This document shows, in pieces, positions 1,025 to 20,952 of a stretch of 64,000 nucleotides of DNA (its first letter is position 1; each line of letters starts with the position of its first letter). Location: contig JAFWDD010000065.1 of the NCBI GenBank assembly GCA_017534115.1, positions 2,142 to 66,141 of the forward strand, given 5' to 3'. Origin of the DNA: Bacillota bacterium (lineage in GTDB: Bacteria; Bacillota; Clostridia; Lachnospirales; Anaerotignaceae). The notes under the pieces were generated by a model. That model did not search any database and was not told the origin of the DNA. It was given only the letters and a program-made list of their open reading frames with translations. A program made the translations under genes and the position numbers.

Positions 1025-2431
1025 TCAGGCTTTATGCCCACCGATCTGCTGATTTCGCTCCAATGCCGTTGCGCCTTCCAGAAGATTCATGCCCTTGAAA
1101 ACCGCGTTCGGCCCGAATCTTCTGCGGGCTTTGAGCATGGCGCCCTGCAGTCTTCTGTCACGCTCCAAAGCCTCGTAATCAGTAAACATATTCAGCTGAA
1201 ACACGCCCATATCCGTTTGAACATCATTGGCGCAAACTCCCAGTCTGCGGTAAAGAAGGCGACGGTCAGTTTTATCGTCAAACTGCTTCAGAAGCGGCTT
1301 TGTTATGACATGAAGATTGTTGGTCAGATTGGCAAATCTTGCCGTTCCTTTGCTGTGTTTCGGATGAACTCTGCCGTAGAAATCCAGAGCCAGCGGCCCG
1401 TCATACTGCGGGCAGGCATCCAGACTTTTGCTGTCATAAATCACCCACCACGAACAGCAGGACGAAACAAGATTTTTCGAAAACATGTCCATGCACAGAG
1501 CTTCTATCATTTCCTGGAACACAAGTCTCGCTTCCTCATATTTATAGGGTCTTGGAAGGACCTGTCCGTTGCTGAGACTGTGGTTTTTGCTTCGGTAGGA
1601 CTTGATATCCTTCATGGTGACAGGCTCGATTCCCCATGCGTGGTCAATGAGAATCTCTCCGTCGATGCCAAAATTTCTGTAAAAAAACTCCTCGTCCCAC
1701 TGGGTCCGCGCCGCAACATCACCCATGGTGAACATGTAAGCGTTTTGAAGACGTCTCGCCTTTCCACGGCCTATCTGCCAGAAATCCGTCAGCGGCTTGT
1801 GATCCCAAAGCAAAAACTTGTAGGAATCCTCATTAAGCTCCGCAATACGGACGCCATCCTTGTCCGCAGGCGATTTTTTTGCCACAATATCCATGGCCAC
1901 CTTAGCAAGATACAGATTTGTGCCGATTCCCACAGTCGCCGTAATACCAGTAGTTTTCAGCACATCCCGAATCATAGTCATGGCCATGACATGAGCCGGA
2001 TTTTCGCCCGTCAGCTCAGCTTCCTTTTGGTACGCGTGAAGATATCCCGTACAGTCGATGAAACACTCGTCAATTGAGTACACATGCACATCCTCAGGCG
2101 CAACATAACGCAGATAAATCCCGTAGATCTGAGCGGAGATCTTTTCGTACTCAAGCATCCGCGGAACAGCAATAATATAGTCGATCTTCATATGATGATG
2201 CTGTTCATATTCCCGAATTTTCTGCTTCGCCTCAAAAAGCCTCGGTCTTGCCGGAACGCCTTTTTCCTTCAGCGCAGGCGATACCGCCAGACATATAGTT
2301 TTGTCCGAGCGTGAAGGGTCTGCCACAAGGAGATTTGCCTTCAGCGGATCCAGTCCCCGATGGACACATTCCACTGAAGCGTAATATGATTTCAAATCTA
2401 TACAAATGTAAGTTCTTTCGTTTTTTTCCAA
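1025..2431 (-). CDS. Y-family translesion DNA polymerase (UmuC/DinB-like)
   Basis: The N-terminus reads YICIDLKSYYASVEC...SIDECFIDCTGY, typical of the Y-family palm domain. TTG start with GGGGAGGG 6 nt upstream. It lies directly downstream of the LexA-like gene. Confidence 0.85.
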   Translation of the reverse strand: MEKNERTYICIDLKSYYASVECVHRGLDPLKANLLVADPSRSDKTICLAVSPALKEKGVPARPRLFEAKQKIREYEQHHHMKIDYIIAVPRMLEYEKISAQIYGIYLRYVAPEDVHVYSIDECFIDCTGYLHAYQKEAELTGENPAHVMAMTMIRDVLKTTGITATVGIGTNLYLAKVAMDIVAKKSPADKDGVRIAELNEDSYKFLLWDHKPLTDFWQIGRGKARRLQNAYMFTMGDVAARTQWDEEFFYRNFGIDGEILIDHAWGIEPVTMKDIKSYRSKNHSLSNGQVLPRPYKYEEARLVFQEMIEALCMDMFSKNLVSSCCSWWVIYDSKSLDACPQYDGPLALDFYGRVHPKHSKGTARFANLTNNLHVITKPLLKQFDDKTDRRLLYRRLGVCANDVQTDMGVFQLNMFTDYEALERDRRLQGAMLKARRRFGPNAVFKGMNLLEGATALERNQQIGGHKA

Positions 2432-2461
2432 CTTAAACCCTCCCCTCGGTTCAGCTGATTT

Positions 2462-3076
2462 TTAAAGATTTTTAATTACTCTGCGGGCAACGCCCTGAAC
2501 CTGAAAGCTTTTCACCTTTATGACCTCCCCCGGATACTTGGCTTCATTGGCATACGCTAAAATATAGCATTTTTCCTTTCTGTTATAGCCGTCATAGCGT
2601 TTCAGAGTATTCTCGTTGTCAGCTCCAAGAGCAACAACTATATCGCCTTTGGACGCGGGACAGTTGCGCTCTATAACAAGCAGGTCGCCCTCATCTATGC
2701 CGGCGTCTGTCATGGAATCGCCTTTAGCACGAAGGATGTAAATGTCGCCCTTGCCGAATACGGAAACAGGCAGACTGACGTACTCCTCAACATACTCCTG
2801 CTCCTCTTCCAGAGAGCCGCATCGGATGGAGCCCACAAGGGGTACAGATATATAGGAAGACTTCATTTTCGCACTTTTAGGCGCCGAAAGAATTCCTCTG
2901 CCGTAATCAAGAAGTCCCCGCTCGCTCAGCTCCTGCAGATACCGGTGCGTAGTAGACCTTGCAACGTTTACGCCCTCCGATACCTCGGATATGGTGGGAG
3001 CCGTGCGGTTGGTCTGGTAGTATTTATTCACAAATTTCAATATTTCATCCATGGTTTTCTGGTTCATGGTCCTCAT
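2462..3076 (-). CDS. LexA-like repressor with S24 autopeptidase domain
   Basis: N-terminal winged-HTH (ISEVSEGVNVARSTTHRYLQELSERGLL). The C-terminal S24 domain carries the GDSM serine and the LKRY lysine. Start placed at ATG 3076 (MRTMNQ), with GGAGG 8 nt upstream. Confidence 0.8.
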   Translation of the reverse strand: MRTMNQKTMDEILKFVNKYYQTNRTAPTISEVSEGVNVARSTTHRYLQELSERGLLDYGRGILSAPKSAKMKSSYISVPLVGSIRCGSLEEEQEYVEEYVSLPVSVFGKGDIYILRAKGDSMTDAGIDEGDLLVIERNCPASKGDIVVALGADNENTLKRYDGYNRKEKCYILAYANEAKYPGEVIKVKSFQVQGVARRVIKNL

Positions 3077-3099
3077 AGAGGTCACCTCCGTTTCTTAAT

Positions 3100-6940: not shown

Positions 6941-7079
6941 ATTCATAGTACTAATTACCGAATTAAAACAAATTCCGGTAATCATGCTGAGTCAAAACGG
7001 TGGAGTACAACAATAATCCCATTACCAGCAGAGTTTGAAAAACCTATTTATACATATTAAAACAGAGAGGATGTGCGTC

Positions 7080-7664
7080 ATGCCTAAAACGCGTTCTTTG
7101 AAGCGCCCATCTGTTGCAGATCTAAAAGAAGAATTAAAGCGCGAAAATTATAAAATTAAATACAATTATCTGCTTCGTGGTACAATTTCTGCTCTTGTCG
7201 TAATTGCTGCCGCTGCTGTTTTGGCTGCCACATTGTTCTTCCCTGTTATGAGAATTTTCGGGAATTCAATGACTCCGACCCTTCATGAAGGAGAAATTGT
7301 TATTGCCGTAAAAAGAAATAATTTTCAGTCAGGTGACATTATTGGATTTTACTATGGTAATAAGCTTTTAGTTAAAAGATATATTGCCGGACCAGGAGAC
7401 TGGGTAAACATTTCTGAAGACGGCACAGTTTTTGTAAATGAAAAGAAGCTTGAAGAACCTTACGTAGATGAAAAATCCTTCGGAGACTGCAACATCAAAT
7501 TGCCATATCAGATTCCTGACGGCAGATACTTTGTGCTGGGCGACCATCGTTCTACTTCAATAGATTCAAGGAATACAACCGTTGGATGTATTGCTGAAGA
7601 ACAAATAGTAGGCACAATCGTTTTTTGCGTATGGCCTTTGTCTGATATAAGGAACATCAATTAA
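7080..7664 (+). CDS. Signal peptidase I (S26), first gene of the pilus operon
   Basis: N-terminal TM segment. Catalytic-Ser box GNSMTPTL, Lys box LVKRYIAGPGD and box E GDHRSTSIDSR are all present. Start moved to ATG 7080, with GAGAGG 9 nt upstream. Confidence 0.85.
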   Translation: MPKTRSLKRPSVADLKEELKRENYKIKYNYLLRGTISALVVIAAAAVLAATLFFPVMRIFGNSMTPTLHEGEIVIAVKRNNFQSGDIIGFYYGNKLLVKRYIAGPGDWVNISEDGTVFVNEKKLEEPYVDEKSFGDCNIKLPYQIPDGRYFVLGDHRSTSIDSRNTTVGCIAEEQIVGTIVFCVWPLSDIRNIN

Positions 7665-7678
7665 GGAGTTATTTTTAT

Positions 7679-10600
7679 ATGAGTAATAAGTTTCATAATA
7701 ATCAGTTTAAATATCGACAACTAAAAACTCGGAAGAAGCACAGGCTATGGACCTTTATGGTTCTCTCCATGGCAGTTATACTCCTAACAGCACACGGCTT
7801 GACCCTTACGGCCATTACCATGCAGACAGTCTGCGGGCAGGAAGCTCATATCCATACAGAGGAATGCTATTCTTCAGAAAGCTCATTTTCTCGCAAACTT
7901 ATCTGCGGAGTTGATAACAGCTCATCATTAGTTGCCCATTACCATGATGATTACTGCTATGACATAGACGGCAGCTTAATGTGCTCTCTCGAGGAAACAG
8001 ATGGACATTTCCATTCAGATGAATGTTACGCATATGATGAAATACTCATATGTGAACTGGACGAATCCGAAGAACACATTCATGATGAATCCTGCTCCGA
8101 GGTAGTACCTCAACTTACCTGCGGATTAGATGAATGCACCGAGACACATCAGCATAGTGCCGACTGCATCTTCGAATCGGAGGATCTTTCCGAACCAGTG
8201 CTCATATGTACCATACCTGAGCATGAACACATACCTGATTGTTATCATGAAAGCACCTCTTCCTGCGGCATAGAAGAACATACGCACAATGATTCATGCT
8301 ATGACGAGGAAGGAAATCTCATATGCGGATTATCGGAACATGTTCACACAGATCTGTGTACGGAACCATACGAAATTCAGAATGAACCTAAGGACGAAAT
8401 AAAAGAAGATCCGGAAAAAACAGAAGAAGAAATACAAGAAATAGAAATCATCCCTAATGAAAATGAAAACTATATTCCTGACCCATATTCAAGATCGGAA
8501 TCTCATACATATGTCGAAAACGCCATTGACAATATTATTTTGACAGGCGTTTACGCCGATGATGTACTTGCAGTGGCTAAAAGCCAGCTTGGGTACAGAG
8601 AAAGCACCACCGATTATATAACAAATGAAAACGGTTATAAGAAAGGGTATACATACTATGGCGAGTGTTATGGATATCCTTACGGCGACTGGTGTGCAAT
8701 GTTCGTATCTTTCTGTCTGGACACTGCGGGAGTACCAAACTATCCGTCCAGTCCAAGCTGTCAGCAATGGATCGAAAAACTGCGTTCCGAAGATGTTTCA
8801 TTGTGGCATCCCGCTTCAGATCCTGACACAAGGGAAAAATACGAGCCTAAGCCCGGTGATTTGATTTTCTATGATTTTGATCTGGACGAACGGTCCGATC
8901 ATGTTGGTATCGTTTCAGAACTGATCGAAGCAGCAGATAATTCCCCTGCTCTTATAAAAACAATTGAGGGAAATTACAGTGATCAAGTTTGTATAGTGAC
9001 TCACGCTCGGTCATATGAAGGGATTATCGGATATGGAGAATTACCCGAAAATCCAGAATTCCTTGAACAATTGGAAAAATCTCCGCTTGACTTGAGAAAA
9101 GCCCTGACACGTTCTGAGTCCGAATTGTTATATGTCATGATTAGCGTGCGAGAGTTGGGAGATGCTACCATAAATATTGAGGGCGCAACATTCATATTGT
9201 ACTACGAAGACGAAGTGCCTTATTTTGTGAATCTTATCTCCGATGAGAATGGGGTTCTTCATGTTTTGAACGGTGACGGGACAGTTGAAGAGGATATCAC
9301 AATGCTGCCTATGGGAAATTACCGTTTAGTGCAGCTCACATCCGATGCTACGCATAAGCCTATACCGACCCCCATCCGCTTTAACATCAGACGAATAGAA
9401 GATATTGCAGTGGAAAACGAATTGATAGATCCGTCTGTTCCAAAAGTCAGCGTTCAGGTCAAAAAAACTTGGGTCGATCAGCCTGATACAAATGTAAATG
9501 CAACAATCCGTTTATATGCAAACGGCGAAGATACCGGTGAAACATATAGTGTCTCTTCCTCCAACCCTGTAACGGAATTCAGTTTTGAAAATCTTCCTAA
9601 GTATGATGAAAACCATGGAAGAATTTCCTACTCCGTAGTCGAAGATGAACTCGATGGATACTATGGCGTAGTTAGAAATCCTTCACAAGGCTATTTTGAA
9701 ATTGATAACTATGAGGGCTTCCAGGTTGGTACCGCCCAAAGCGGGTCTTTATGGGTTGCAACAAGCTCCTATGCCTACCTGGTACAGGTCGATGAAAACA
9801 GCTCTGTCAGCTGCGGCAATCAACTGACGCTAATGTCCGATGCATATGCACCAAGCGGATTTGCAAACAGTTATTATGGCCACGGAATAGCCTATTGGAC
9901 AGACGGTACGGATGAGTATCTTTTTGCCATAAACAATTATAAGCAGATGGTCGTAGTAACCGACCCGTCAACGACAACGACGATTGCCGGCCGGAACAAC
10001 ACTAATCGTTCATTCTTAAGCATAACCGGAGTTAACGGCGATCTTACCCACACCTTAGAATGCTCGTCTGACGGTCAATATCTCATGCTGAAAGCCGGCA
10101 GCGGATCAACTATCTATATGATCCCGATCACCAAGGCGCTTTCCATTCCCAATGGCAGCTCATTAAATGTCAATGATCCCGACGTTATTAAAATCAACGC
10201 CACCTATACGGAAGGAAACAGACGAGTTTTTTGCGATGGCGATATTGTTCAGCTGCCAAGCGGTGACCTGCTGTTTACGGGGTATATGAGCAATTCTCTT
10301 TATACCGGCTCTCGCTCTCAGCTATTCCTGATTCCCAAGACAGGAAACGGATGGGGACCTTGTCAGTGTGTCGGCGAGATTGAAAATATTGCCACACTGA
10401 ATACAGGCAGTATGCTGTACAGAGGCGAGACGGATGGTTTGGCAATGTACGGAGGAAAGCTGTATTTTACCTCTTCATATACAACTGCACAGGGTCCGTT
10501 TTATGTCTATCCTCTGTCCCAACTGCCACAGGCGGGGAATCCAAGCAACACAGTTTATACAGTGGATACTGCAGGGGGTATCTCTTTGCCGTCATCAGTA

Positions 10601-11788
10601 TTTAATCGGATCAATTCTTTGACCGACGCTTCGGCCAGTCCACCTTCAGTCAGTTCCGCATATGTCAGCAGCGTCGTATCCAAGGTTTGGCTTAATGATA
10701 CGGAAGAAACCAGGCCGGAATCTATTACGGTACAGGTATACGTAAGAAATCAGGCGGGAGACACTCCATATTTGGACAGCAACGGAAATCTAATCACACG
10801 TGAATTATCAGCAGAGAACGGTTGGTCAACCTCTATCAGTGCATCTGATGCTCTTCTGCCAAAATATGATGGTAGCGGGAACACTGTACAGTATGTTTGG
10901 AAAGAGGTCAGCGTACCGACGGGTTACATTTCTTCCATTGACAGCACCGGTCACACTATAACCAACCGGTTGTTGACCAAATCTTTGAAAATACGCAAGG
11001 TAGATGAGGATAACCACTCTATTATCTTACCGGATGCTTCATTTACGCTCTTTGCGGAAGACCAACTGACTGTGGTTGGTAGAGCAACTACAGATGTAAA
11101 CGGAGAAATAATCTTTAACAACTTACAGGAAGGGACTTGGTATTTAAGGGAAACAGCCGCTCCGGAAGGCTATGATCAGATCACAGACGAGATGAAAATA
11201 GTGGTTTCAAAGGCAGAAAACGGTCAAACATACATAACCTTCTATTACAATAACGTACCTATTGAAATAGAGCCCGACGATGACGCTTATATCATAGAAA
11301 ATAAGAAGACGTCATTAACCAATCTTACCATACAAAAAATGGTTGTAGGCGGTAATCAATCCGAAAGCTTCCCGTTTGAGATTATCTTTTATAACAGCGG
11401 TGGGGATATCATCACAAATATACCTGAAGGCGAAGGGTATTCTGTAGACGAAACAACGGGGCTTGTCGAGTTCTCTCTGTCAAATGAGCAGTCAGTTACG
11501 ATCCTCAATATCCCTCTAGATGCAACTGCAACTATTCGGGAAACCAATCATAACGGCTATACGGTTCTCATAAAGGACGGAAGCCAAACGCTTTTCATCG
11601 GAGACAACGGCAGTATAACGGTAAATGAACATCAAAATATTACCATTATCAACAACGCCGGCACCACTTTGCCAGAAACAGGCGGCATTGGCACTTTTAT
11701 CTACACATACTGCGGTGCAGCAATTATACTCTCCGTTTTTATATACGGTTATATACGGCACACAAGAGAAAGGAGGTCTATAAAATAG
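7679..11788 (+). CDS. LPETG-anchored multidomain surface protein, candidate pilus tip (Cys/His repeat array, CHAP amidase/peptidase domain, CnaB/SpaA-type domains)
   Basis: N-terminal TM/signal segment. Eight C..HxH..C mini-repeats at aa 52-227. CHAP motifs DWCAMFVSF, DHVGIV and IEGN. CnaB-like segments (VQVKKTWVDQ..., VSKVWLNDTEETRPESITVQVY...). An E-box-like WYLRETAAPEGY. C-terminal LPETGG, hydrophobic stretch and RHTRERRSIK. Confidence 0.85.
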   Translation: MSNKFHNNQFKYRQLKTRKKHRLWTFMVLSMAVILLTAHGLTLTAITMQTVCGQEAHIHTEECYSSESSFSRKLICGVDNSSSLVAHYHDDYCYDIDGSLMCSLEETDGHFHSDECYAYDEILICELDESEEHIHDESCSEVVPQLTCGLDECTETHQHSADCIFESEDLSEPVLICTIPEHEHIPDCYHESTSSCGIEEHTHNDSCYDEEGNLICGLSEHVHTDLCTEPYEIQNEPKDEIKEDPEKTEEEIQEIEIIPNENENYIPDPYSRSESHTYVENAIDNIILTGVYADDVLAVAKSQLGYRESTTDYITNENGYKKGYTYYGECYGYPYGDWCAMFVSFCLDTAGVPNYPSSPSCQQWIEKLRSEDVSLWHPASDPDTREKYEPKPGDLIFYDFDLDERSDHVGIVSELIEAADNSPALIKTIEGNYSDQVCIVTHARSYEGIIGYGELPENPEFLEQLEKSPLDLRKALTRSESELLYVMISVRELGDATINIEGATFILYYEDEVPYFVNLISDENGVLHVLNGDGTVEEDITMLPMGNYRLVQLTSDATHKPIPTPIRFNIRRIEDIAVENELIDPSVPKVSVQVKKTWVDQPDTNVNATIRLYANGEDTGETYSVSSSNPVTEFSFENLPKYDENHGRISYSVVEDELDGYYGVVRNPSQGYFEIDNYEGFQVGTAQSGSLWVATSSYAYLVQVDENSSVSCGNQLTLMSDAYAPSGFANSYYGHGIAYWTDGTDEYLFAINNYKQMVVVTDPSTTTTIAGRNNTNRSFLSITGVNGDLTHTLECSSDGQYLMLKAGSGSTIYMIPITKALSIPNGSSLNVNDPDVIKINATYTEGNRRVFCDGDIVQLPSGDLLFTGYMSNSLYTGSRSQLFLIPKTGNGWGPCQCVGEIENIATLNTGSMLYRGETDGLAMYGGKLYFTSSYTTAQGPFYVYPLSQLPQAGNPSNTVYTVDTAGGISLPSSVFNRINSLTDASASPPSVSSAYVSSVVSKVWLNDTEETRPESITVQVYVRNQAGDTPYLDSNGNLITRELSAENGWSTSISASDALLPKYDGSGNTVQYVWKEVSVPTGYISSIDSTGHTITNRLLTKSLKIRKVDEDNHSIILPDASFTLFAEDQLTVVGRATTDVNGEIIFNNLQEGTWYLRETAAPEGYDQITDEMKIVVSKAENGQTYITFYYNNVPIEIEPDDDAYIIENKKTSLTNLTIQKMVVGGNQSESFPFEIIFYNSGGDIITNIPEGEGYSVDETTGLVEFSLSNEQSVTILNIPLDATATIRETNHNGYTVLIKDGSQTLFIGDNGSITVNEHQNITIINNAGTTLPETGGIGTFIYTYCGAAIILSVFIYGYIRHTRERRSIK

Positions 11789-11873
11789 CACCTTAGGGGC
11801 AAAAACACATTAATTATTCTGATATAACCAAATAAAAAAAAACTACAATACTAAAAAGAAAGGAAAATGTAAA

Positions 11874-13388
11874 ATGAAAAAAATCAAAAACCTGCTTCCT
11901 ATCCTAATAGCAGGCATTATGGTCATGGCATTATCTGCCACCGCTTTTGCGGCCGGCGATGGAAGCATTACAGTAAACGGCACAACATCAGGAAAATCTT
12001 ATGAGATCTACAAAATTTTCGATTTGACAAAATCCAGCGGAGACAGTGTCTCCTACACTATCGATGACGACTGGACAGACTTTTTCTTTGATGGTTCAGG
12101 AGACTTAACAACCAATGGTACTAAATATCTTCTTACATCTCAACCCGCAGGCGAAAGCTACACTCAGATAGTATATGCCGGCACAGTATATTATGTAAAA
12201 ATTACAGACAGCAATGTTGCAAACTTTGCAAACGACGCACAGGAATATGCAGGAAGCAAGGCGCCTGACGATTCCAAAACTGCAACAGGCGATTCCGTTG
12301 TTTTTGATGATATTCCTCTTGGATACTACCTTGTTCTTCCCGTTGACGCTACGGAAATCAAAGAAGGAAACAGCTCAATCTGTTCAATCACAAACGCTGC
12401 TCCCGACGGTGAAGTAAATATTAAAGGAGAATACCCTGATATTGATAAAACTGTTGATGATGACGACGTTGAAGTCGGACAGGAAGTTACATACACAATC
12501 ACTGGAGAAGTTCCCGATACAACAGGATATGATACTTTTACCTACAAGGTCCATGATACCATGGATTCTGGCCTGACCTTCGGCACGACCGCTGCCACCA
12601 CCAACTTTACCGTAGAGTTTGGTGAAGCCACGATCTACGACAGCAGCACTTCGCTTCCCGACGGTATGACTTTGAATTTCGATAACAATGGCTTTGTGTT
12701 AAATTTCGATATGGTAAAATTCCAGAATTATAAAGGTCAACCTATCACCATAAGTTACAATGCTGTTGTCAACGACGAAGCCGTATGCCAGTTGACCGAG
12801 AACGATGCTTATCTTGAATATGGTCATGATCCCGATGAACTTGAAGAAACCACACATAAGGAAATTCCTGTTTACTCTTCAAAAATTGTAATCAACAAAT
12901 ATGACGGAAACAACACTGAAAACAAGCTTGCAGAAGCTAAATTCGTTCTTTACAAAGTCGTAGACGGCGCAAAGCATTACTACAAATACACAGCAGCATC
13001 CGGAACAACTCCCGCTAAAGTAGAATGGGTAGAAGAAGTAACTGCAGGCGTTATTCCTACTGGCGCAACGGAAGTTGAAACAAACACTGACGGCGAAGCA
13101 ACATTTTCAGGTCTTGAAGGCGGAGAATACTGGCTCCACGAAACAGAATCACCTGACGGATACAATCTGCTTACAGCTGATACAAAAGTAACTGTAACCG
13201 CACCTACATATGTAGATGAAAAACCCATCGGCGTTTCCGTAACAGCCGACGTACCTAATAACAGCGGTTCAACCTTACCAGAGACCGGAGGTATGGGTAC
13301 AAGAATCTTTTACATCATAGGAGCCGCCCTTATAGCAGGCGCAGGAATAACTCTTTTTGTTCGCAAACGCATTTCTGACGAAAAATAA
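11874..13388 (+). CDS. Major (backbone) pilin, LPETG sortase substrate
   Basis: Signal peptide (AFA/AG), a YPDIDK pilin-motif-like lysine context, an E-box YWLHETESPDGY, and C-terminal LPETGG followed by a TM segment and KRISDEK. It sits next to a class C sortase gene. Confidence 0.85.
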   Translation: MKKIKNLLPILIAGIMVMALSATAFAAGDGSITVNGTTSGKSYEIYKIFDLTKSSGDSVSYTIDDDWTDFFFDGSGDLTTNGTKYLLTSQPAGESYTQIVYAGTVYYVKITDSNVANFANDAQEYAGSKAPDDSKTATGDSVVFDDIPLGYYLVLPVDATEIKEGNSSICSITNAAPDGEVNIKGEYPDIDKTVDDDDVEVGQEVTYTITGEVPDTTGYDTFTYKVHDTMDSGLTFGTTAATTNFTVEFGEATIYDSSTSLPDGMTLNFDNNGFVLNFDMVKFQNYKGQPITISYNAVVNDEAVCQLTENDAYLEYGHDPDELEETTHKEIPVYSSKIVINKYDGNNTENKLAEAKFVLYKVVDGAKHYYKYTAASGTTPAKVEWVEEVTAGVIPTGATEVETNTDGEATFSGLEGGEYWLHETESPDGYNLLTADTKVTVTAPTYVDEKPIGVSVTADVPNNSGSTLPETGGMGTRIFYIIGAALIAGAGITLFVRKRISDEK

Positions 13389-13461
13389 TTCCTGAAACTG
13401 TATATAAGTTAGCAGGCTTTACCAATATCTATATTTTCAACTTATATAATTAATTCTCAGT

Positions 13462-13497
13462 CCGTACCCTCTGCGATTGCTCCGCAGAGGGATACGG
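13462..13497 (+). other. Strong intercistronic stem-loop between the pilin and sortase genes
   Basis: CCGTACCCTCTGCG / CGCAGAGGGATACGG forms a ~14-bp stem with one bulge and a 7-nt loop. No U-tract follows. Confidence 0.6.
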
Positions 13498-13516
13498 TAA
13501 TAAGGAGTGTCCTGTA

Positions 13517-14362
13517 TTGAAGAAGGGTAAAACCACAACCATTATATTGATTATTTTTTTTCTAATTGGGCTTTGCTTATTGCTGTATCCAAAGGTAAGC
13601 AATTACTGGAATTCATTTCATCAGACAAAAGTAGTAAATCAATATATCGAAGAAGTAACGGGCATAGATGACTCAGTATATGAAGCAATGATGAAAGAGG
13701 CTGAACAATACAATCTTTCTCTTCTTGACCGTGAAAACAAGTTTGCCTTAACAAAAGAACAAGAAGTACTCTACCCGAATATCCTTAATGTTGCAGGCAA
13801 CAGCATTATGGGATATATTGAGATACCTGTCATAGGAGTAACTCTTCCAATTTATCACGGTACATCTAATTCCGTACTTCAAACCGCAATCGGCCATATA
13901 GAATGGACAAGTCTGCCAATAGGCGGCAGGAGCACCCACTGTGCTCTTTCCGGACATAGAGGCCTTCCTTCAAGCAAGCTTTTTACAGACCTGGACAAAT
14001 TAGTTGTAGGTGATACATTTTACCTCCGAGTTTTAAATGAAACCCTCACATATGAGGTAGACCAGATATTGATTGTCGAACCTGAGGATACAGTTCCTTT
14101 GGAAATTACTCCCAATTGCGACTATTGCACTCTTGTGACCTGCACTCCCTATGGTATCAACACGCATCGTTTGCTTGTACGCGGGCATCGAACAGAGAAC
14201 GACACATCAATCTCTAATGTACATATTACAGCTGATGCTATTCAAATCGAGCCTTTACTTGCCGCACCGGCATTCTTTGCTGTGATTTTAATTATTGCTC
14301 TGATTGTATATGCGATTACCCAAAAGGTCAGAAGACTTAATAAGGAGAATAACCATGATTAA
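13517..14362 (+). CDS. srtC: Class C (pilin-polymerising) sortase
   Basis: N-terminal and C-terminal TM anchors, an active-site His context (ALSGHRG), TLVTCTPYGINTHRLLVRG with the Cys and Arg. TTG start with AAGGAG 9 nt upstream. Confidence 0.85.
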   Translation: MKKGKTTTIILIIFFLIGLCLLLYPKVSNYWNSFHQTKVVNQYIEEVTGIDDSVYEAMMKEAEQYNLSLLDRENKFALTKEQEVLYPNILNVAGNSIMGYIEIPVIGVTLPIYHGTSNSVLQTAIGHIEWTSLPIGGRSTHCALSGHRGLPSSKLFTDLDKLVVGDTFYLRVLNETLTYEVDQILIVEPEDTVPLEITPNCDYCTLVTCTPYGINTHRLLVRGHRTENDTSISNVHITADAIQIEPLLAAPAFFAVILIIALIVYAITQKVRRLNKENNHD

Positions 14363-15626
14363 CTTAAATATAAAATCAAAAAAATGGTTTATGTTTATCA
14401 TATGTACCATATTGTCCGTGGCACTTCTGCCGGTATGCGCCTTCGCAAAAATACCGGTGACTTCAAGCGGTTCCTCCTCCCTGACAATCGTTTGCAAAGA
14501 TAAGGGAACTCCTCTTGAAGGAATCACTTATGATTTATACAAAATTGCCGACACAGATGATAAAGGAGGTTTCTCATTAACGAAAGAATTTGAGAACTAT
14601 TCCATTTCCTTTGAACAGGATTCCGCGGAAGATATACGTGCCCTTGCCAAGACCTTGTCTCTGTATGCAATCAGGGACGAAATACCCTTTGTTTCGCAGG
14701 CAAAGACTGGAAAAAACGGAAAAGCTCTGCTCCGGAACCTTTCTGCCGGCTTATACCTGGCATATGGTCACAAATACACGGATAAAGAGAAGGATTTTAC
14801 TTATACTCCTGAGCCGATCCTGGTCAATCTCAAAAAAGCTGGCTCACCTGACAGTCCATTTTACAATATTACTGTAAATAGCAAAGGCGGTATAGGAGGC
14901 GGAGATACTCCGGAAACAACCGTTGTCAAGGTGCTGAAGGTATGGGATGACAAAGGTAACGAAGAAAACCGTCCTTCCGAAATCGAAGCAGAGCTTTTGA
15001 GAAACGGAAAAGTATACGATACCGTTATATTAAACGCAAAAAACAACTGGAAATACACATGGAAAAATCTCAGCCCAGATTACGAATGGAGTGTCGTTGA
15101 AAAATCGGTCCCCAGGGATTATTCCATGATCATTTCCAAAGAAGGCATCACTTATGTACTGACAAATAAATACCATCCGGAATTAACAACAGTTGAAGCC
15201 GAAAAAGTATGGAATGACAAAGGACATGAAAAAGAACGCCCTAAAAGCATTGAGGTAACCCTTTTTCGCAGCGGTGAAGAATATGAAACTGTAATATTAA
15301 GCGACACCAATGGATGGAAATACACATGGACAGATTTGGATCCCAAATACACATGGACTGTGAAAGAGGCCTCATATTTCAGCGAATATACCCAAAGTGT
15401 AGAACAAAAAGGCGGTAAATTCACAATTACCAATACATACATTCCTCTCGAGCCTCCGGCCGAGTCTGAGAATAATCCTCCGCCGGTCAATACTCCTCCG
15501 ACCGATTATCCTGACCTGCCGCAGACAGGACAGCTTTGGTGGCCTATTCCTATTCTCATATTGTCAGGGCTCTTATTCTATGCGGCAGGTTTTGTTTTAA
15601 ATAACAAAACAAAAAATGATGATTAA
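14355..15626 (+). CDS. CnaB-repeat minor/basal pilin, LPQTG sortase substrate
   Basis: Start moved to ATG 14355 (MINLNIKSKKW...) with AAGGAG upstream; it overlaps the srtC stop. Signal peptide, two CnaB repeats (KVWDDKGNEENRPSEIEAELLRNG..., KVWNDKGHEKERPKSIEVTLFRSG...), then LPQTG, a TM segment and a basic tail. Confidence 0.85.
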   Translation: MINLNIKSKKWFMFIICTILSVALLPVCAFAKIPVTSSGSSSLTIVCKDKGTPLEGITYDLYKIADTDDKGGFSLTKEFENYSISFEQDSAEDIRALAKTLSLYAIRDEIPFVSQAKTGKNGKALLRNLSAGLYLAYGHKYTDKEKDFTYTPEPILVNLKKAGSPDSPFYNITVNSKGGIGGGDTPETTVVKVLKVWDDKGNEENRPSEIEAELLRNGKVYDTVILNAKNNWKYTWKNLSPDYEWSVVEKSVPRDYSMIISKEGITYVLTNKYHPELTTVEAEKVWNDKGHEKERPKSIEVTLFRSGEEYETVILSDTNGWKYTWTDLDPKYTWTVKEASYFSEYTQSVEQKGGKFTITNTYIPLEPPAESENNPPPVNTPPTDYPDLPQTGQLWWPIPILILSGLLFYAAGFVLNNKTKNDD

Positions 15627-16272
15627 AAATAATAAAAATATAAATCAATATCTTCTTTTCATAATTGGAACCATACTTATTGTTTCTGCCGCATTATTAT
15701 ATTTATATAACACAAAGACCAATTTTAATGCACATATTCAGTCTGAAGCCATTGTGGAACAGATACACGAAACATCCGAAGAGTATGGGGAACTTTTTTA
15801 CTCCGGGCAATTAATACCTGATTATATACTTGTTCCCGGCATAGAAATGCCTTCCACCGATATAGACGGTAACCTTTATATAGGCACCCTCACCTTTCCC
15901 GATTTGAATCTGGAACTGCCCGTTATGGGAGATTGGAGCTATCCGAAGCTGAAGATCTCACCATGCCTTTATTCAGGGTCAATATATGAACACAATGCCG
16001 TTATTGCTGCCCATAATTATAACAGTCATTTCGGTAGACTGTCCGAGCTTGATTATGACAGTAGCGTCATATTCACAGATATAGAAGGAAACAGATTTCT
16101 TTTTGTAGTTGCTGCTAAAGAGATTTTAGAGCCAAAATCGACAGAAGACATGGTAAACAGCGGTTTCGAGCTGAGCTTATATACATGCACGTTAAGCGGA
16201 ACATCAAGATATACCGTAAGGTGCAAGCTCATTCAATCACCTGATGGTTCAACCTCCGGTGTAATGTATTAA
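15616..16272 (+). CDS. Second sortase (non-class-C, housekeeping-type)
   Basis: N-terminal TM anchor, a His context (VIAAHNYNSHFG), an LYTCT Cys motif and the RYTVRC Arg. The start overlaps the upstream stop. Confidence 0.75.
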   Translation: MMIKNNKNINQYLLFIIGTILIVSAALLYLYNTKTNFNAHIQSEAIVEQIHETSEEYGELFYSGQLIPDYILVPGIEMPSTDIDGNLYIGTLTFPDLNLELPVMGDWSYPKLKISPCLYSGSIYEHNAVIAAHNYNSHFGRLSELDYDSSVIFTDIEGNRFLFVVAAKEILEPKSTEDMVNSGFELSLYTCTLSGTSRYTVRCKLIQSPDGSTSGVMY

Positions 16273-16345
16273 ATCCTCGTCCGGTATTACAACTTCTGAA
16301 AATAGTTACAATAATACTCATGATAGCATTCTGGGAGAGATAAAT

Positions 16346-17104
16346 ATGGCACATAACGCATTGGACCTCAGAGGGCAAAAGTTCGGATTTCTTACCGCTC
16401 TTTTCAGACTGCCCGAAACAGAAAACCGATATTTTTTATGGGAATGCAGATGTGACTGCGGAAAACATGTCCAGGTATCCACCAAAAACCTAACAAAAGG
16501 TATAGTTAAAAGCTGCGGATGCCAAAGATCCCATCAAAAACAATCCACAAACAGAATAAAAGGCAAACGTTTCGGCAGACTCATAGCTCTTACCGCCACA
16601 AAAAAACGAAGTTATAAAGGGTCCATAATTTGGCAGTGCAAATGCGACTGCGGCAATATAACCGAAGCATCCGCGGACGCACTTCTTCATGGCAATAAAA
16701 CCAGCTGCGGATGCAGAAAAAATGAACTTAAAAATTCGATTCATGACCAACTGACTTTTGTAGACAGCACTTGCATAGAATGGCTGCGTTCAAGGAAAAA
16801 CCGCAAGGATAATACAAGCGGCTTCAGAGGAGTATATGAATCACATGGAAAATGGCGCGTATCCATCGGATTTAAAAAAAGGAGATATTACTACGGTACA
16901 TATGACACTTTCGAACAGGCCAAAGCTGCCAGGCTTGAAATCGAAAAGATTCTTCATGATGATTTTATCGCGGCATGGGAAAAGTGGCTGGAAGCCTCAA
17001 AAGATGACCCAGAATGGGCCGAAACACATCCGTTTGAATTCAATGTTCAAAAGGTTAACGGAAAAATCACCATACAATCAAATATTCTTGACAGTACCCT
17101 TTAA
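16346..17104 (+). CDS. AP2-like DNA-binding protein with two Cys4 zinc-ribbon repeats
   Basis: Two repeats of G.(K/R)FG.L..L....W.C.CDCG.....L..G...(S)CGC. The C-terminal SGFRGVYESHGKWRVSIGFKKRRYYYGTYDTFEQAKAARLE matches the AP2/integrase-type DNA-binding fold. Confidence 0.65.
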   Translation: MAHNALDLRGQKFGFLTALFRLPETENRYFLWECRCDCGKHVQVSTKNLTKGIVKSCGCQRSHQKQSTNRIKGKRFGRLIALTATKKRSYKGSIIWQCKCDCGNITEASADALLHGNKTSCGCRKNELKNSIHDQLTFVDSTCIEWLRSRKNRKDNTSGFRGVYESHGKWRVSIGFKKRRYYYGTYDTFEQAKAARLEIEKILHDDFIAAWEKWLEASKDDPEWAETHPFEFNVQKVNGKITIQSNILDSTL

Positions 17105-17151
17105 AGAATTCAAATAACTTTAATAATTTAAAAAGAAAGGACGTATATCAG

Positions 17152-17442
17152 ATGAACAAAACAGATTTAGCAAGAGAATTATCCCAAACAGTCGGTATAT
17201 CCCAAAAGGCGGCTCTTGATTATACAAATGCTATGCTGGATATACTAGTAAGAAGCTTAAACAAAAAAGAACCCATAAAATTCATTGGATTCGGCTCGTT
17301 CAGAGTAAAACTCGTCTCCAAGCGGATAGCAAGAAATCCTCACACAAATGAGATAATTGAAATCCCCGAACACTACAGAACAGTTTTCAAGGCAAGCACC
17401 AAGCTGCTTGAGCATTTAAATGCGGCAGCCTTGAAATCATAA
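17152..17442 (+). CDS. HU/IHF-family nucleoid protein
   Basis: 96 aa with MNKTDLA...FGSFRVK...RIARNPHTNEIIEIP, the canonical HU arm. Confidence 0.85.
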   Translation: MNKTDLARELSQTVGISQKAALDYTNAMLDILVRSLNKKEPIKFIGFGSFRVKLVSKRIARNPHTNEIIEIPEHYRTVFKASTKLLEHLNAAALKS

Positions 17443-17453
17443 TTGATACACAT

Positions 17454-17483
17454 AGGGGATTAGCGCATATCAGCTTATCCCCT
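17454..17483 (+). terminator. Possible terminator after the HU gene
   Basis: AGGGGAT / ATCCCCT stem with a 16-nt loop. The U-tract is weak (TTG). Confidence 0.35.
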
Positions 17484-17892
17484 TTGCCTCCACTTAATTT
17501 ATCTAGCACAGATATACCTAAATCTAAATTTAAAATTATGTAACATATTTTAAAGATAAAACAGCCCTGTTGTTAATTGAAAAAACTACATGTTAGTTTC
17601 ATAATGACATATTAGAAATGGAACAACGTTGCAAATAATGACCCTAATTGTTTCTTCGCTGTTCCCTTTATATTTGAAGTTTTTTATTCAGATGGCGAAA
17701 TAGTTATGCATACTCTAGTTTTGAGTGTGTCAAAGCAAGATGATAATGGAATATAAGATATTTTGATAAATCAGAAAAACCAAGCGTATTTTTCCCAAAA
17801 AACCAACTTAAAAAACTATAGGCAGAGCTGTTAGTCCAGTTATGACCTGTTTATTACATATAAAACCATATAATTAAAAGGAGAAAAACTAT

Positions 17893-20037
17893 ATGAAGAA
17901 AAAAAATTTTCTTGTTGCAGTAATGTTAGTGATGCTGATTCTGCTTAGCACTATAGGAACAGCGTTTGCAACGGAGTACTCGCCCATCGATCCTGATGAT
18001 CAGGGAAAAAGCAGCCTTATTGGCGGAGACACATTAGCCTTTACTGATGATACGGTATGGGCAAACCTGACTGCACGCTGGGGCGTGCGCGTCATCTTTC
18101 AGGATGGTGATGAATGGAGCAACGCAGAACTGAAGAGCGAGCTGATCCCGGTGACGGACAGCGCAGCCGGCAGCACAACTACACCAGACGATCCGATCCA
18201 TGAGGGCTGGACGTTTAACGGCTGGGAAAGGGTCGATACCAACAACGGCTCATCAACCCTGAATGACGACGGAACGGTGACCGGCATAAACGGCCCGGGA
18301 CCTATCATCTATCAGGCAGTGTATGAGCCGATCCCGCCCAAGACCGGCGGCCTGACTGTGAGTAAGACAATCAGTGGCGACGCAGCTGACGCTACACATG
18401 CGTTCACCTTCACCGTGACCCTTTCCGATACAACGGTCAGCGGCGAGTTTGGCGATATGGCCTTTGAAGAAGGTATTGCTACCTTCAAGCTGAAGGGTGG
18501 AGAGCGTATAACAGCGGAGGGACTGCCTGCTGGAGCAAGCTACGTCGTTGTTGAAAGCGATAACCGTGGCTATAGAATTACAAAGACCGGCGATACTGGT
18601 GAAATCGTAGACGGCAAAACTGTAGTTGCGGCTTTTACCAACATAAGGAACAGCTCTTCTCCATCTGACTCGGACGATCCCCCCGTGGCGCCCAAAATCG
18701 GCAGTTTGACTATTAGCAAGACGGTTTTAGGAACAGCCAGTGATATGGATAAAGCATTTACTTTCACGGTAACTTTCAGTTCCAGCGGAACATACAGTTA
18801 TACAGGCAGCAAGAGCGGAACAATTCACAGCGGCGGCACGGTGCAACTGAAGGATGGTGAATCCATAACAATCAGCGGCATTCCTGCTGATACAAGCTAT
18901 ATGGTTGCGGAAAGCGACAACGAAGGATACGAAGTTTACAAGAGCGGAGATACGGGAACGATTGCCGCTAATAGCACATCAACGGCATCATTCAGGAACA
19001 GACATGAAGCAGCTCCGCCTCCAATCGATGATCCAAATAAATCGGATGCGCCAGACGAGCGTCCGACTGACCCTTTCAAGCCTGACAATCCGGATAAGCC
19101 GAATAAACCGGTTACACCGCCTACAACATCCAATCCGCCGAACGATCCAGGCACTCCCAATCAGCCAAATGAACCCTGCACACCTGACACTCCGAGCGAG
19201 TCTGTGACGCCGCAGACCGGAGATAACAGCAACATGACGCTGTGGCTCGGCATTCTTCTGACTTCCTTCGGCGGGATGATCGTCTGCCTCGTGCTGTTCA
19301 GAAAGAAGAAGCATGTGGGCAATCATACAAACATGCTTCTGATTCTAATGCTTGTAGGCATAATTGCCTTCTCCGGCTTTAGCGCAACCAATGCCTTTGC
19401 TGCAGAAGATAGCACCACCGGTTATACATACGGTCAGTATGACATGACCTACCTGCCTGGCACCACGGATACCGTGACCAATATGCCCGAAAACGAGACG
19501 AGCCTTACTCCTGGCGCTAACAACCCTTATACCATCTCTTCCACTGTTCCTATGCGCGAAGGCTTTGAGTTCATAGACTGGACGCTCACTTGGGGAACCA
19601 TGGAAAAGCCTATCCCTCTGACGGACTATGTAGTGAAGTATCTGGATATTGACACGCTAGAACCTGTAACAGAAGATAAGACCGTAACTGGCCTTGAGGT
19701 CGGAACGTCTGTAAACGAGAACGCTGTTGGAGTGGATGGTTATACAGCTCTTGATCCGACAGAAGCTACTCTAGTGCTGGCTGAAAACGGCAACGAGATC
19801 ATATTCTATTATAAGAAGCAACCAGTTCTGACATCATACACAATATACTACCTTGACGCAAATACTGAAGAAATGATTTCACCTCCTAAAATCAAAACGA
19901 ATGTCCCAATAGGTGATTCTATTACAGAATATGCAGTCGAAGTCTCCGATTATTATCCTATAGGTACAAGTATTAACTTTACAACAAAAGAAAGTGGGAA
20001 CGAGTATAAGTTTTACTATCTTTTTAAAGAAGATTAA
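17893..20037 (+). CDS. Surface protein with an internal PQTG sorting signal followed by a second signal-like segment and MucBP-like repeats
   Basis: Signal peptide, GWTFNGW Listeria-Bacteroides-type repeat, two pilin-isopeptide-type domains (TVSKTISGDAADATHAFTFTVTLSD..., TISKTVLGTASDMDKAFTFTVTFSS...) and a Pro-rich stalk. Then VTPQTG (19204-19221), a TM segment and RKKKH. The same frame continues into MLLILMLVGIIAFSGFSATNAFAAE and 230 more aa. Confidence 0.8.
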   Translation: MKKKNFLVAVMLVMLILLSTIGTAFATEYSPIDPDDQGKSSLIGGDTLAFTDDTVWANLTARWGVRVIFQDGDEWSNAELKSELIPVTDSAAGSTTTPDDPIHEGWTFNGWERVDTNNGSSTLNDDGTVTGINGPGPIIYQAVYEPIPPKTGGLTVSKTISGDAADATHAFTFTVTLSDTTVSGEFGDMAFEEGIATFKLKGGERITAEGLPAGASYVVVESDNRGYRITKTGDTGEIVDGKTVVAAFTNIRNSSSPSDSDDPPVAPKIGSLTISKTVLGTASDMDKAFTFTVTFSSSGTYSYTGSKSGTIHSGGTVQLKDGESITISGIPADTSYMVAESDNEGYEVYKSGDTGTIAANSTSTASFRNRHEAAPPPIDDPNKSDAPDERPTDPFKPDNPDKPNKPVTPPTTSNPPNDPGTPNQPNEPCTPDTPSESVTPQTGDNSNMTLWLGILLTSFGGMIVCLVLFRKKKHVGNHTNMLLILMLVGIIAFSGFSATNAFAAEDSTTGYTYGQYDMTYLPGTTDTVTNMPENETSLTPGANNPYTISSTVPMREGFEFIDWTLTWGTMEKPIPLTDYVVKYLDIDTLEPVTEDKTVTGLEVGTSVNENAVGVDGYTALDPTEATLVLAENGNEIIFYYKKQPVLTSYTIYYLDANTEEMISPPKIKTNVPIGDSITEYAVEVSDYYPIGTSINFTTKESGNEYKFYYLFKED

Positions 20038-20157
20038 AACAGATTATTATTAATATAGAATAATTCTTAACCACATTGAGCAGTAAATCAGCACTTAAAT
20101 GAGCGGATCAGCTTTGTCACAGAAAGGCATAGGCTTTAAAACATGGAGGAAGAATGA

Positions 20158-20952
20158 ATGAACAAAAGGAAAAAGATTGGTATACGGACACTTTTCTTTC
20201 TGTCTTGTATCGTCTTCCTTTTCAGCGGATATATGCTGCTCCGCAATGCAGTAAAGTACATGGCGGCGACAGACACCTATCAGGCACTACGAACAGAAGT
20301 TCAAAGTAGCACTCTCACTGTCACATGGAAAGGATCGGCAAAGAATGGAGAAATAAACGAAGTAAAAACTGTACTGGAGCCACTTGTATCTATGGACTTT
20401 TCCTCTTTGCTGGAAATCAATCCGGAGATCGTCGCTTGGATCAGAATCGAAGGAACCAATATTGACTACCCCGTTATGCAAACAGTTAACAACATCTATT
20501 ATCTAACACACATGTATAACGGGGAATATAACAACAGCGGCTCCATCTTTATGGATTACCGCTGCAATGCAGATTTTTCAGACAAAAACACTGTTTTCTA
20601 TGGTCACCACATGAGAAACTCAACCATGTTCGGTGATCTGGAGAAATACAAAAGCCAGGAGTTCTATGATTATAACCCCAACATAACAATATTCACACCA
20701 GAAGGAGACTTTGTCATCGAACTTATTTCTGGAACTGTCGAGAACGGCAACTACGAATTTGTTCGGTTTGATTTAGAAAACGACGATGATTTTCTAAGCT
20801 ACATAGACGAACTGAGACGCCGATCCACCTTTACAAGCGACGTGGAAGTGCGGGCAGACGATCAAATCATATGCCTCTGCACATGTTCCTACGAATGGAA
20901 CAATGCAAGGTATATGGTGGTTGGGCGTCTGGTACGGTTATATCAGCAGTAA
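20158..20952 (+). CDS. srtB: Class B sortase
   Basis: N-terminal TM segment, NTVFYGHHMRNSTMFGDL, and LCTCSYEWNNARYMVVGRL with the Cys and Arg. GGAGGA lies 7 nt upstream. Confidence 0.8.
   Translation: MNKRKKIGIRTLFFLSCIVFLFSGYMLLRNAVKYMAATDTYQALRTEVQSSTLTVTWKGSAKNGEINEVKTVLEPLVSMDFSSLLEINPEIVAWIRIEGTNIDYPVMQTVNNIYYLTHMYNGEYNNSGSIFMDYRCNADFSDKNTVFYGHHMRNSTMFGDLEKYKSQEFYDYNPNITIFTPEGDFVIELISGTVENGNYEFVRFDLENDDDFLSYIDELRRRSTFTSDVEVRADDQIICLCTCSYEWNNARYMVVGRLVRLYQQ

Follow-up and report, generated by a model that had tools for sequence, protein, structure and literature searches.

A sortase sorting signal in the middle of a protein: a probably old gene fusion that may yield two bacterial surface products

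Results

Organisation of the fused gene

The window analysed in this work is a 64,000-nucleotide stretch of a gut Bacillota bacterium of the family Anaerotignaceae (GenBank assembly GCA_017534115.1, contig JAFWDD010000065.1, positions 2,142 to 66,141 of the forward strand), and its subject is a single gene (17893-20037, + strand, as are all of its parts described below) that encodes a 714-residue protein with a complete sortase sorting signal in its middle, followed by a predicted second signal peptide. The open reading frame (ORF) is uninterrupted, and is preceded by the Shine-Dalgarno (SD) sequence AAAGGAG (-8.9 kcal/mol). It opens with a first signal peptide, recognised from the sequence and modelled as a helix over residues 2-21 (MKKKNFLVAVMLVMLILLSTIGTAFA, ending before TEY; residues 1-26, 17893-17970). 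There follow an N-terminal head domain, the N-head (residues 27-146, 17971-18330), two DUF5979/DUF7601 stalk domains (residues ~147-376, 18331-19020; Pfam 3.9e-16 and 2.2e-49), which have the pilin fold of T-antigen, PitA, PitB and Cpa, and a disordered linker rich in Pro, Asp and Asn (residues 377-437, 19021-19203).

The sorting signal comprises the sortase motif VTPQTG (residues 438-443, 19204-19221), with a predicted cut between T442 and G443, the 22-residue hydrophobic segment MTLWLGILLTSFGGMIVCLVLF (transmembrane segment 1, TM1; residues 448-469, 19234-19299), and a basic tail. Textbook sorting signals are C-terminal, whereas this one is followed by 241 residues. No stop succeeds RKKKH (residues 470-474), and the frame continues through VGNHTN, M481 (ATG 19333), LLILMLVGIIAFSGFSATNAFA and then A504-EDS. 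The basic loop RKKKHVGNHTN (residues 470-480, 19300-19332) has a net charge of +4 and is predicted to be cytoplasmic; it does double duty, ending the sorting signal with a charged tail and supplying the n-region for the second, internal signal peptide (residues 481-503, 19333-19401), which has the h-region MLLILMLVGIIAFSGF, the c-region SATNAFA, and a predicted signal peptidase I (SPase I) cut between A503 and A504. This matches the first-pass annotation of the locus, which had placed a complete sorting signal at the same coordinates, with no stop after RKKKH, and had recognised a second signal-peptide-like segment, MLLILMLVGIIAFSGF-SATNAFA/AE, behind it.

The sorting-signal segment passes the NCBI curated LPXTG_anchor model TIGR01167 (21.1 bits against a cut-off of 15.9), and falls under the cut-off of the srtB_target model TIGR03063 (13.2 bits against 18.15), which the homologue P0007 passes at 22.0 bits. 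When the 2363 frames of at least 150 residues in the 1.86-Mb genome were scanned for a motif, a transmembrane segment and a basic tail, four genuine sorting signals emerged, three of which have a stop 3-6 residues later. Hence that of the window ORF is the sole internal one.

Beyond the second signal peptide lies the C module (residues 504-714, 211 residues), in which neither the sequence nor Pfam reveals a C-terminal anchor of any kind. It consists of a head domain, the C-head (residues 504-577, 19402-19623; YTYGQYDMTYLPGTTDTVTNMP...REGFEFIDW), and two beta domains (residues ~578-643 and 644-714, 19624-20034).

Predicted structure and domain relationships

AlphaFold modelled the full protein with a mean predicted local distance difference test (pLDDT) score of 77.6. 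The core of the N-head (residues ~57-146) and both stalk domains were modelled confidently, pLDDT fell below 50 over residues 383-447, and the two beta domains, from residue 576, were modelled very confidently. Two helices, residues 446-471 (26 residues) and 475-496 (22 residues), form a hairpin across the junction, containing TM1 and the second hydrophobic segment respectively. Foldseek matched the stalk to PitA (3.8e-15), Spy0128 (7.5e-12) and Cpa (6.5e-10), and the model of residues 576-714 (pLDDT 95-97) to YwfG (3.7e-6), Mub-RV (4.5e-5) and an R. gnavus immunoglobulin-binding protein (5.6e-5), with weaker matches to a MUB type 2 repeat (2.6e-4) and Spr1345 (1.3e-2).

The first-pass annotation had read the C module as a Listeria-Bacteroides-type repeat with two MucBP-like repeats. 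It was right in kind, but no Pfam model, including MucBP (PF06458) and Flg_new (PF09479), matches the window's C module even at E<=10. The C-terminal domains are of MucBP fold judging by their models. A phmmer search with residues 504-577 returned 338 matches, among them proteins assigned to Flg_new by Pfam (1e-76 to 1e-132), each of which aligns with the query at 11-13 places, and these remote matches suggest that the C-head is a divergent Listeria-Bacteroides repeat. The split relative P0266, described below, has a Pfam MucBP match (2.2e-11), and scores 25.1 bits for Flg_new, under the cut-off of 27. The idea that the N-head and C-head are paralogues was dropped because BLASTP found no similarity between them.

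Conservation of the internal junction

A search of 5.8 billion proteins, followed by pattern scans and inspection, identified at least 14 divergent relatives that combine an N-head, an internal xPxTG-D signal, a basic loop, a second signal peptide and a C-head, all in frame. The 14 fused relatives range from 380 to 1607 residues in length, their identity across the junction drops to 39-51%, and the N-head is present in 14/14 complete sequences. One cluster comes from cultured isolates of Ruthenibacterium lactatiformans (WP_192960800.1, WP_192960573.1, MTQ82090.1 and others), whose copies NCBI names, going by the internal signal alone, 'sortase B protein-sorting domain-containing protein'. The residues T-G-D after the proline are invariant in nine divergent sequences, and the residue before the proline is T, V, N or A. 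Family-wide, TM1 spans 19-25 residues, the loop 8-11 and the second h-region 16-20, followed by a small-X-small (AXA-type) site; the net charge of the loop is between +4 and +7 in 13 of 14 relatives.

The junction was compared at the DNA level in eight loci (the window, L016, L017, L019, L023, L025, L026 and L027), and is in frame in all of them, with the loop having accumulated in-frame indels and many synonymous changes. By the Nei-Gojobori method, synonymous divergence (dS) is 0.75-1.6 or saturated, and the ratio of non-synonymous to synonymous divergence (dN/dS) is 0.24-0.45 over the junction and 0.07-0.25 over the C-head. Because dS is near saturation, dN/dS is low and the indels preserve the frame, the reading frame has long been maintained by purifying selection.

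These comparisons bear directly on whether the join is genuine, the alternative being a mistake in sequencing or assembly, or else a pseudo-fusion of very recent date confined to the window genome. The run of Lys codons at the junction, AGAAAGAAGAAG, counts in favour of that alternative. Yet the same join recurs in at least 14 divergent proteins, from independent samples as well as cultured isolates, and in eight loci at the DNA level, and the identical 714-residue protein has been recorded on two contigs and in three sources (NCBI, ENA and Logan). Hence an artefact, which the first-pass annotation had named as an outcome that would overturn its reading, is scarcely credible, and the fusion is old and maintained, being neither an error nor a recent accident.

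The fusion was sought in other collections. A junction profile run against 400 other genomes of the same order gave no match covering both the sorting signal and the C-head, the matches being either to the sorting-signal part alone, mostly with a stop right behind it, or to the C-head alone. Scanning with the junction alignment recovered no relative from genome contigs and one partial locus, L024, from metagenome contigs; tblastn against plasmids gave no match. A whole-protein search of 40 relatives returned domain-level matches only, and no orthologue.

Two-gene relatives

The C-head belongs to a larger family, most members of which are secreted and free-standing, the domain being directly preceded by a classical signal peptide of the form MKK...AFA/AYA. 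In these, the AFA/AYA ends 8-15 residues before the shared head motif, a distance that is 16 in the window protein; all fused relatives keep the AXA-type site where the free-standing relatives have their signal-peptide cleavage site.

The first-pass annotation had proposed looking in relatives for a stop codon or gap between the halves. At least 14 keep them fused, as described above, and L022 has them split, with the gene order of the fused form: the gene of a sortase substrate terminates in ...VPKTGDNANVALWIGCALAGIVLLGGLAVIIRRKKR-TAA, behind which come a strong hairpin, GGAGG, and the ATG of P0058, a C-head protein. The spacer between the two (L022 666-784) is 119 nt long and contains, ahead of the GGAGG and ATG, a perfect 14-bp inverted repeat (CCGGAACAGGCTAT / ATAGCCTGTTCCGG), which may act as a terminator or attenuator between the partners. 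In L029, the C-head/MucBP protein P0266 is encoded 48 nt upstream of an N-head protein, P0041, that has a normal C-terminal VPKTG signal. Downstream of the latter (L029 9669-12760) are genes for an Rce1-like CPBP protease, a small DUF7601 protein, a lipoprotein signal peptidase (A8) and a C39 peptidase.

Since L022 and L029 carry the halves as separate neighbours, the two are partners that were once two genes, joined in one lineage through loss of the stop, spacer and start. Once they were joined, the sorting signal's basic tail took on the role of n-region for the second signal peptide. The first-pass annotation had offered a recent fusion of two genes by loss of a stop codon as its alternative; the two-gene origin stands, given the split L022, but the recent date does not, given at least 14 divergent fused relatives.

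Translation of the C module

It had also been noted at first pass that no SD precedes ATG 19333, which was taken to argue against a separate overlapping gene, and both points are upheld. The anti-SD duplex energy is -2.4 at ATG 19333 and -2.1 at GTG 19315, which is background for this ORF, whose 28 in-frame internal ATG, GTG and TTG codons average -2.4; starts that possess an SD in the surrounding island, described below, range from -5.9 to -9.3. No promoter-like site was found on the + strand between 18600 and 20000. Among the relatives, L016 has GTA at the conserved Met/Val position and no start codon ahead of the h-region, and L025 has no Met at that position. Because the start codon (L016) or Met (L025) is absent before the second segment, the C modules of these loci would be exportable only within the fusion.

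It is nevertheless conceivable that these are two functional genes lacking a stop between them, with the C module made mainly from GTG 19315 or ATG 19333 and the fusion a tolerated by-product. The second n/h-region commonly opens with Met or Val, AAAGGAAG precedes the ATG of L019 by 5 nt, and in L028 an internal ATG is preceded by GGTGG. This is at odds with the background SD energies and the lack of a promoter-like site in the window, with the sequences of L016 and L025, and with the retention of the frame over saturated synonymous divergence; moreover, as there is no stop, every ribosome translating the N module still makes the fusion. We consider such an arrangement extremely improbable.

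A programmed frameshift at the Lys-codon run was also considered, and was dropped because the nucleotides of the run are unconserved, varying between AGAAAGAAGAAG, AGAAAGAAAAAG, CGTACGAAATGG and AGAAAAAATAAT, and off-frame stops are not above chance.

The associated sortase and signal peptidase

The adjacent gene, as recognised at first pass, encodes a class B sortase (SrtB; 20158-20952, + strand). It begins 121 nt downstream of the fused ORF, with the SD GGAGG, and matches TIGR03064 at 2.6e-63 (213.5 bits against a cut-off of 153.75); its nearest solved structure is C. difficile SrtB (1.8e-37). SrtB orthologues, 61-67% identical, immediately follow the fused gene in L016, L017/L018 and L024, making five loci counting the window. 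The window's 7035-20952 region is an island that holds 3/3 of the sortases and 4/4 of the sorting-signal proteins of the 1.86-Mb genome. Within this repertoire, the fused protein is the only non-LPxTG substrate, and the only candidate substrate of SrtB. The island also encodes an SPase I of family S26 (7035-7664, + strand; Pfam 2e-32), one of three in the genome, the others being on contigs C22 and C53. It is possible that this island enzyme processes the internal signal peptide.

The sortase evidence is pertinent to a further explanation, in which no sortase processing occurs, and the 'sorting signal' is simply the first transmembrane helix of a stable two-pass membrane protein with two extracellular arms. 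SrtB is not adjacent to the fused gene in four relatives, and the window protein scores under the TIGR03063 cut-off, as would suit such a protein. However, a mere membrane helix sits poorly with the invariance of T-G-D across nine divergent sequences, with a TIGR01167 score above the cut-off, and with the homologous segment terminating a normal sortase substrate in the split L022. The co-linear SrtB orthologues, and the position of the fused protein as sole candidate SrtB substrate in its genome, also count against it, making this explanation very unlikely.

The island is flanked by a LexA/ImuB-type pair (1025-3085) on one side, and by defence-type genes and a trp operon (from ~29.4 kb) on the other. 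An AP2-like DNA-binding protein and one or two HU genes accompany the fused adhesin and srtB in three divergent loci, being upstream in the window (16346-17442), and downstream in L016 (4901-6539) and L017 (10904-12466). AP2/HU, adhesin and srtB together look like a conserved mobile module. At another locus (L027 5082-10029), the stretch is headed by P0124, a 1607-residue fused homologue with FctA and many DUF7601 domains, downstream of which are genes for HU, an AAA_25 ATPase, a Mob_Pre relaxase, a primase-type zinc ribbon and a type IV secretion system coupling protein. Since a relaxase, a coupling protein and the rest follow P0124, this fused adhesin rides on a conjugative or mobilisable element.

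Discussion

The topology of the fused protein determines what the two halves could become. By the positive-inside rule, and by homology to cleavable signal peptides, the basic loop between the two hydrophobic segments would be cytoplasmic, and therefore both large modules would be outside the cell. The first-pass annotation had proposed that one polypeptide would give two products if the sortase cleaves at T/G, the C-terminal one being held by a transmembrane hairpin or released by signal peptidase, and the topology that two extracellular products entail is consistent across the family, with its short basic loop and conserved AXA site.

We consider it rather probable that the ORF is a maintained fusion of a SrtB substrate and a partner secreted protein, acting as a precursor of two products. 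Firstly, the initial signal peptide would start Sec export of the N module, consisting of the N-head, two pilin-fold stalk domains and the Pro-rich linker, until TM1 (448-469), within the sorting signal, halts translocation. Secondly, with the RKKKHVGNHTN loop remaining cytoplasmic, the second hydrophobic segment (481-496) would insert N-in/C-out and restart export, this time of the C module. Thirdly, SPase I would cut after AFA503, freeing the C module, with its Flg_new-like head and two MucBP-fold domains, and the class B sortase would cut between T442 and G443, attaching the N module to the wall or incorporating it into a fibre. A hairpin peptide of ~61 residues would be left in the membrane, and the predicted new ends are AEDSTTGYTYGQYDMTYLPG... 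at the start of the C module, and ...PSESVTPQT at the end of the N module. Finally, the released C module may dock non-covalently on the wall-anchored N module, giving a stalk and an adhesin in a 1:1 ratio at one site. We infer this docking purely because the C module has no anchor of its own, and the C-head is always found with an N-head, within the 14 fused relatives and as neighbours in L029.

Two variants of this sequence of events differ in the fate of the C module. In one, the sortase cuts and sends the N module to the wall, but the second segment stays uncleaved, such that everything from G443 onward is anchored in the membrane by the hairpin and displays the C module. The modelled helices of 26 and 22 residues would suit such an anchor, and membrane retention would explain how an adhesin with no other anchor stays on the cell. 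We nonetheless regard this as unlikely, since the AXA-type site is present in all fused relatives, spaced from the following domain approximately as in the signal peptides of the free-standing relatives, and the h-region of 16-20 residues and c-region of 5-7 residues are typical of cleaved Gram-positive signal peptides. In the other, sortase and signal peptidase excise the hairpin, and SrtB takes the C module of the same polypeptide as its acceptor, through the alpha-amine laid bare at A504 by signal peptidase or through a side-chain amine, covalently reuniting stalk and adhesin outside the cell and amounting to a sortase-driven 'protein splicing' of a polyprotein; this is a highly improbable outcome.

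Several observations weigh against a two-product precursor, or against individual steps of its maturation. The loop of one relative, P0014, is only weakly charged, with a net charge of about 0. SrtB is not adjacent to the fused gene in L019, L023, L026 or L027. Docking is argued from co-occurrence only, with BLASTP finding the N-head and C-head dissimilar, and the AlphaFold confidence for the C-head is low. In L023, an in-frame TGA (486-488) occupies a position in the N-head at which relatives have Gly (...DDGTVTGINGPGP...), in a fused gene that is otherwise intact; this could represent a pseudogene, a phase-off variant or a sequencing error. Finally, L028 (106-1290, encoding P0021) has three hydrophobic segments, unlike a simple hairpin, in addition to the SD-like GGTGG before its internal ATG.

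The arrangement in P0021 is distinctive in its own right, with a sorting signal, a second segment lacking AXA, GGTGG, an ATG and then an entire signal peptide like those of the free-standing proteins. P0021 thus has the look of a recombinant between the fused and free-standing forms.

Phrase searches of the literature for an internal sorting signal, or an internal LPXTG with sortase, found nothing. The only documented precedent found, and by analogy the closest known system, appears to be the N-terminal anchor of the M26 zinc metalloproteases of streptococci and Gemella. These proteins (IgA1 protease ZmpA, ZmpB, ZmpC and ZmpD) are described as having a signal peptide, a sortase motif in the N-terminal region and two hydrophobic segments (PMC3518915; PMC9637739). 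The second hydrophobic segment, ahead of a large extracellular domain, is described as another signal peptide in function, and has a putative site for signal peptidase (PMC3518915). The motif is LPXTG and is attributed to sortase A (PMC9637739).

The window protein has its elements in the same order, but differs from the Zmp proteins in several ways. Firstly, its motif is at residue 438, behind three folded domains, and the pre-motif part of the fused family is a complete pilin-fold surface protein of 110-1100 residues, whereas that of the Zmp proteins is short and is not known to include a recognised domain. Secondly, the family has an xPxTG-D motif and a dedicated class B sortase, rather than LPXTG and sortase A. 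Thirdly, there is no sequence relationship, the window protein has no Pfam match to M26 or G5, and its C part is a MucBP-type adhesin, not a protease. Fourthly, the window family includes split two-gene relatives (L022 and L029). An unrelated 1286-residue protein, P0171, has within residues 23-105 a VPETG motif and a transmembrane segment, behind which a long run of basic residues leads into a second segment resembling a signal peptide, with the end VIFA/DS. Its motif is only 22 residues from the N-terminus, and the arrangement is a Zmp-like N-terminal anchor in another family.

The motif itself is of the type recognised by SrtB of C. difficile, which cleaves (S/P)PXTG proteins at T/G, the motif being followed by D or N, a hydrophobic stretch and basic residues (PMC4155245). 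The xPxTG-D of the window family shares this form, but has T, V, N or A, not S or P, before the proline, and the window signal is 241 residues from the C-terminus. Pipelines that predict sortase substrates demand a C-terminal signal; the screen for C. difficile substrates, for instance, required the motif to be 17-45 residues from the C-terminus (PMC4155245).

The N module shares its stalk fold with FCT-type/PI-2 pili, such as Spy0128 and Cpa of S. pyogenes, and PitA/PitB of S. oralis and S. pneumoniae (Foldseek 3.8e-15 to 1e-8), and the fused homologue P0124 carries a Pfam FctA domain. Among the solved class B sortases matched was 3psq, which we take to be the S. pyogenes pilus sortase Spy0129, although the entry title does not say so. 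Unlike in these pili, no ancillary pilins adjoin the window gene, and nothing tested indicates polymerisation. No pilin motif or conserved lysine was identified in the window family, in which no systematic motif search was made; the only conserved-looking Lys of the N-head (DDQGK) is Met in P0003 and P0023.

Other bacteria make two extracellular products from one precursor that remain functionally linked, as with C. difficile SlpA, with its high- and low-molecular-weight subunits, and S. aureus Atl. There, export happens once and dedicated proteases then cut the precursor, whereas the maturation proposed here would use sortase and signal peptidase cuts flanking a membrane hairpin.

The fused family shows that an entire sorting signal is able to function, or at any rate to be retained by selection, in the middle of a protein, and the annotation of surface proteins should allow for internal sorting signals. 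As R. lactatiformans has been cultured, the idea is directly testable. If the two cuts do occur, then one gene yields a wall-anchored stalk and an anchorless adhesin of the mucus-binding type, constituting a bacterial surface polyprotein. This bears on adhesion by gut Clostridia, with a possible use in the design of two-protein surface display. In a broader and highly improbable reading, the combination of an internal sorting signal and a second signal peptide would, if this is true, represent a general, so far undescribed means of delivering two surface proteins, in a fixed ratio and at one site, in Gram-positive and related bacteria.

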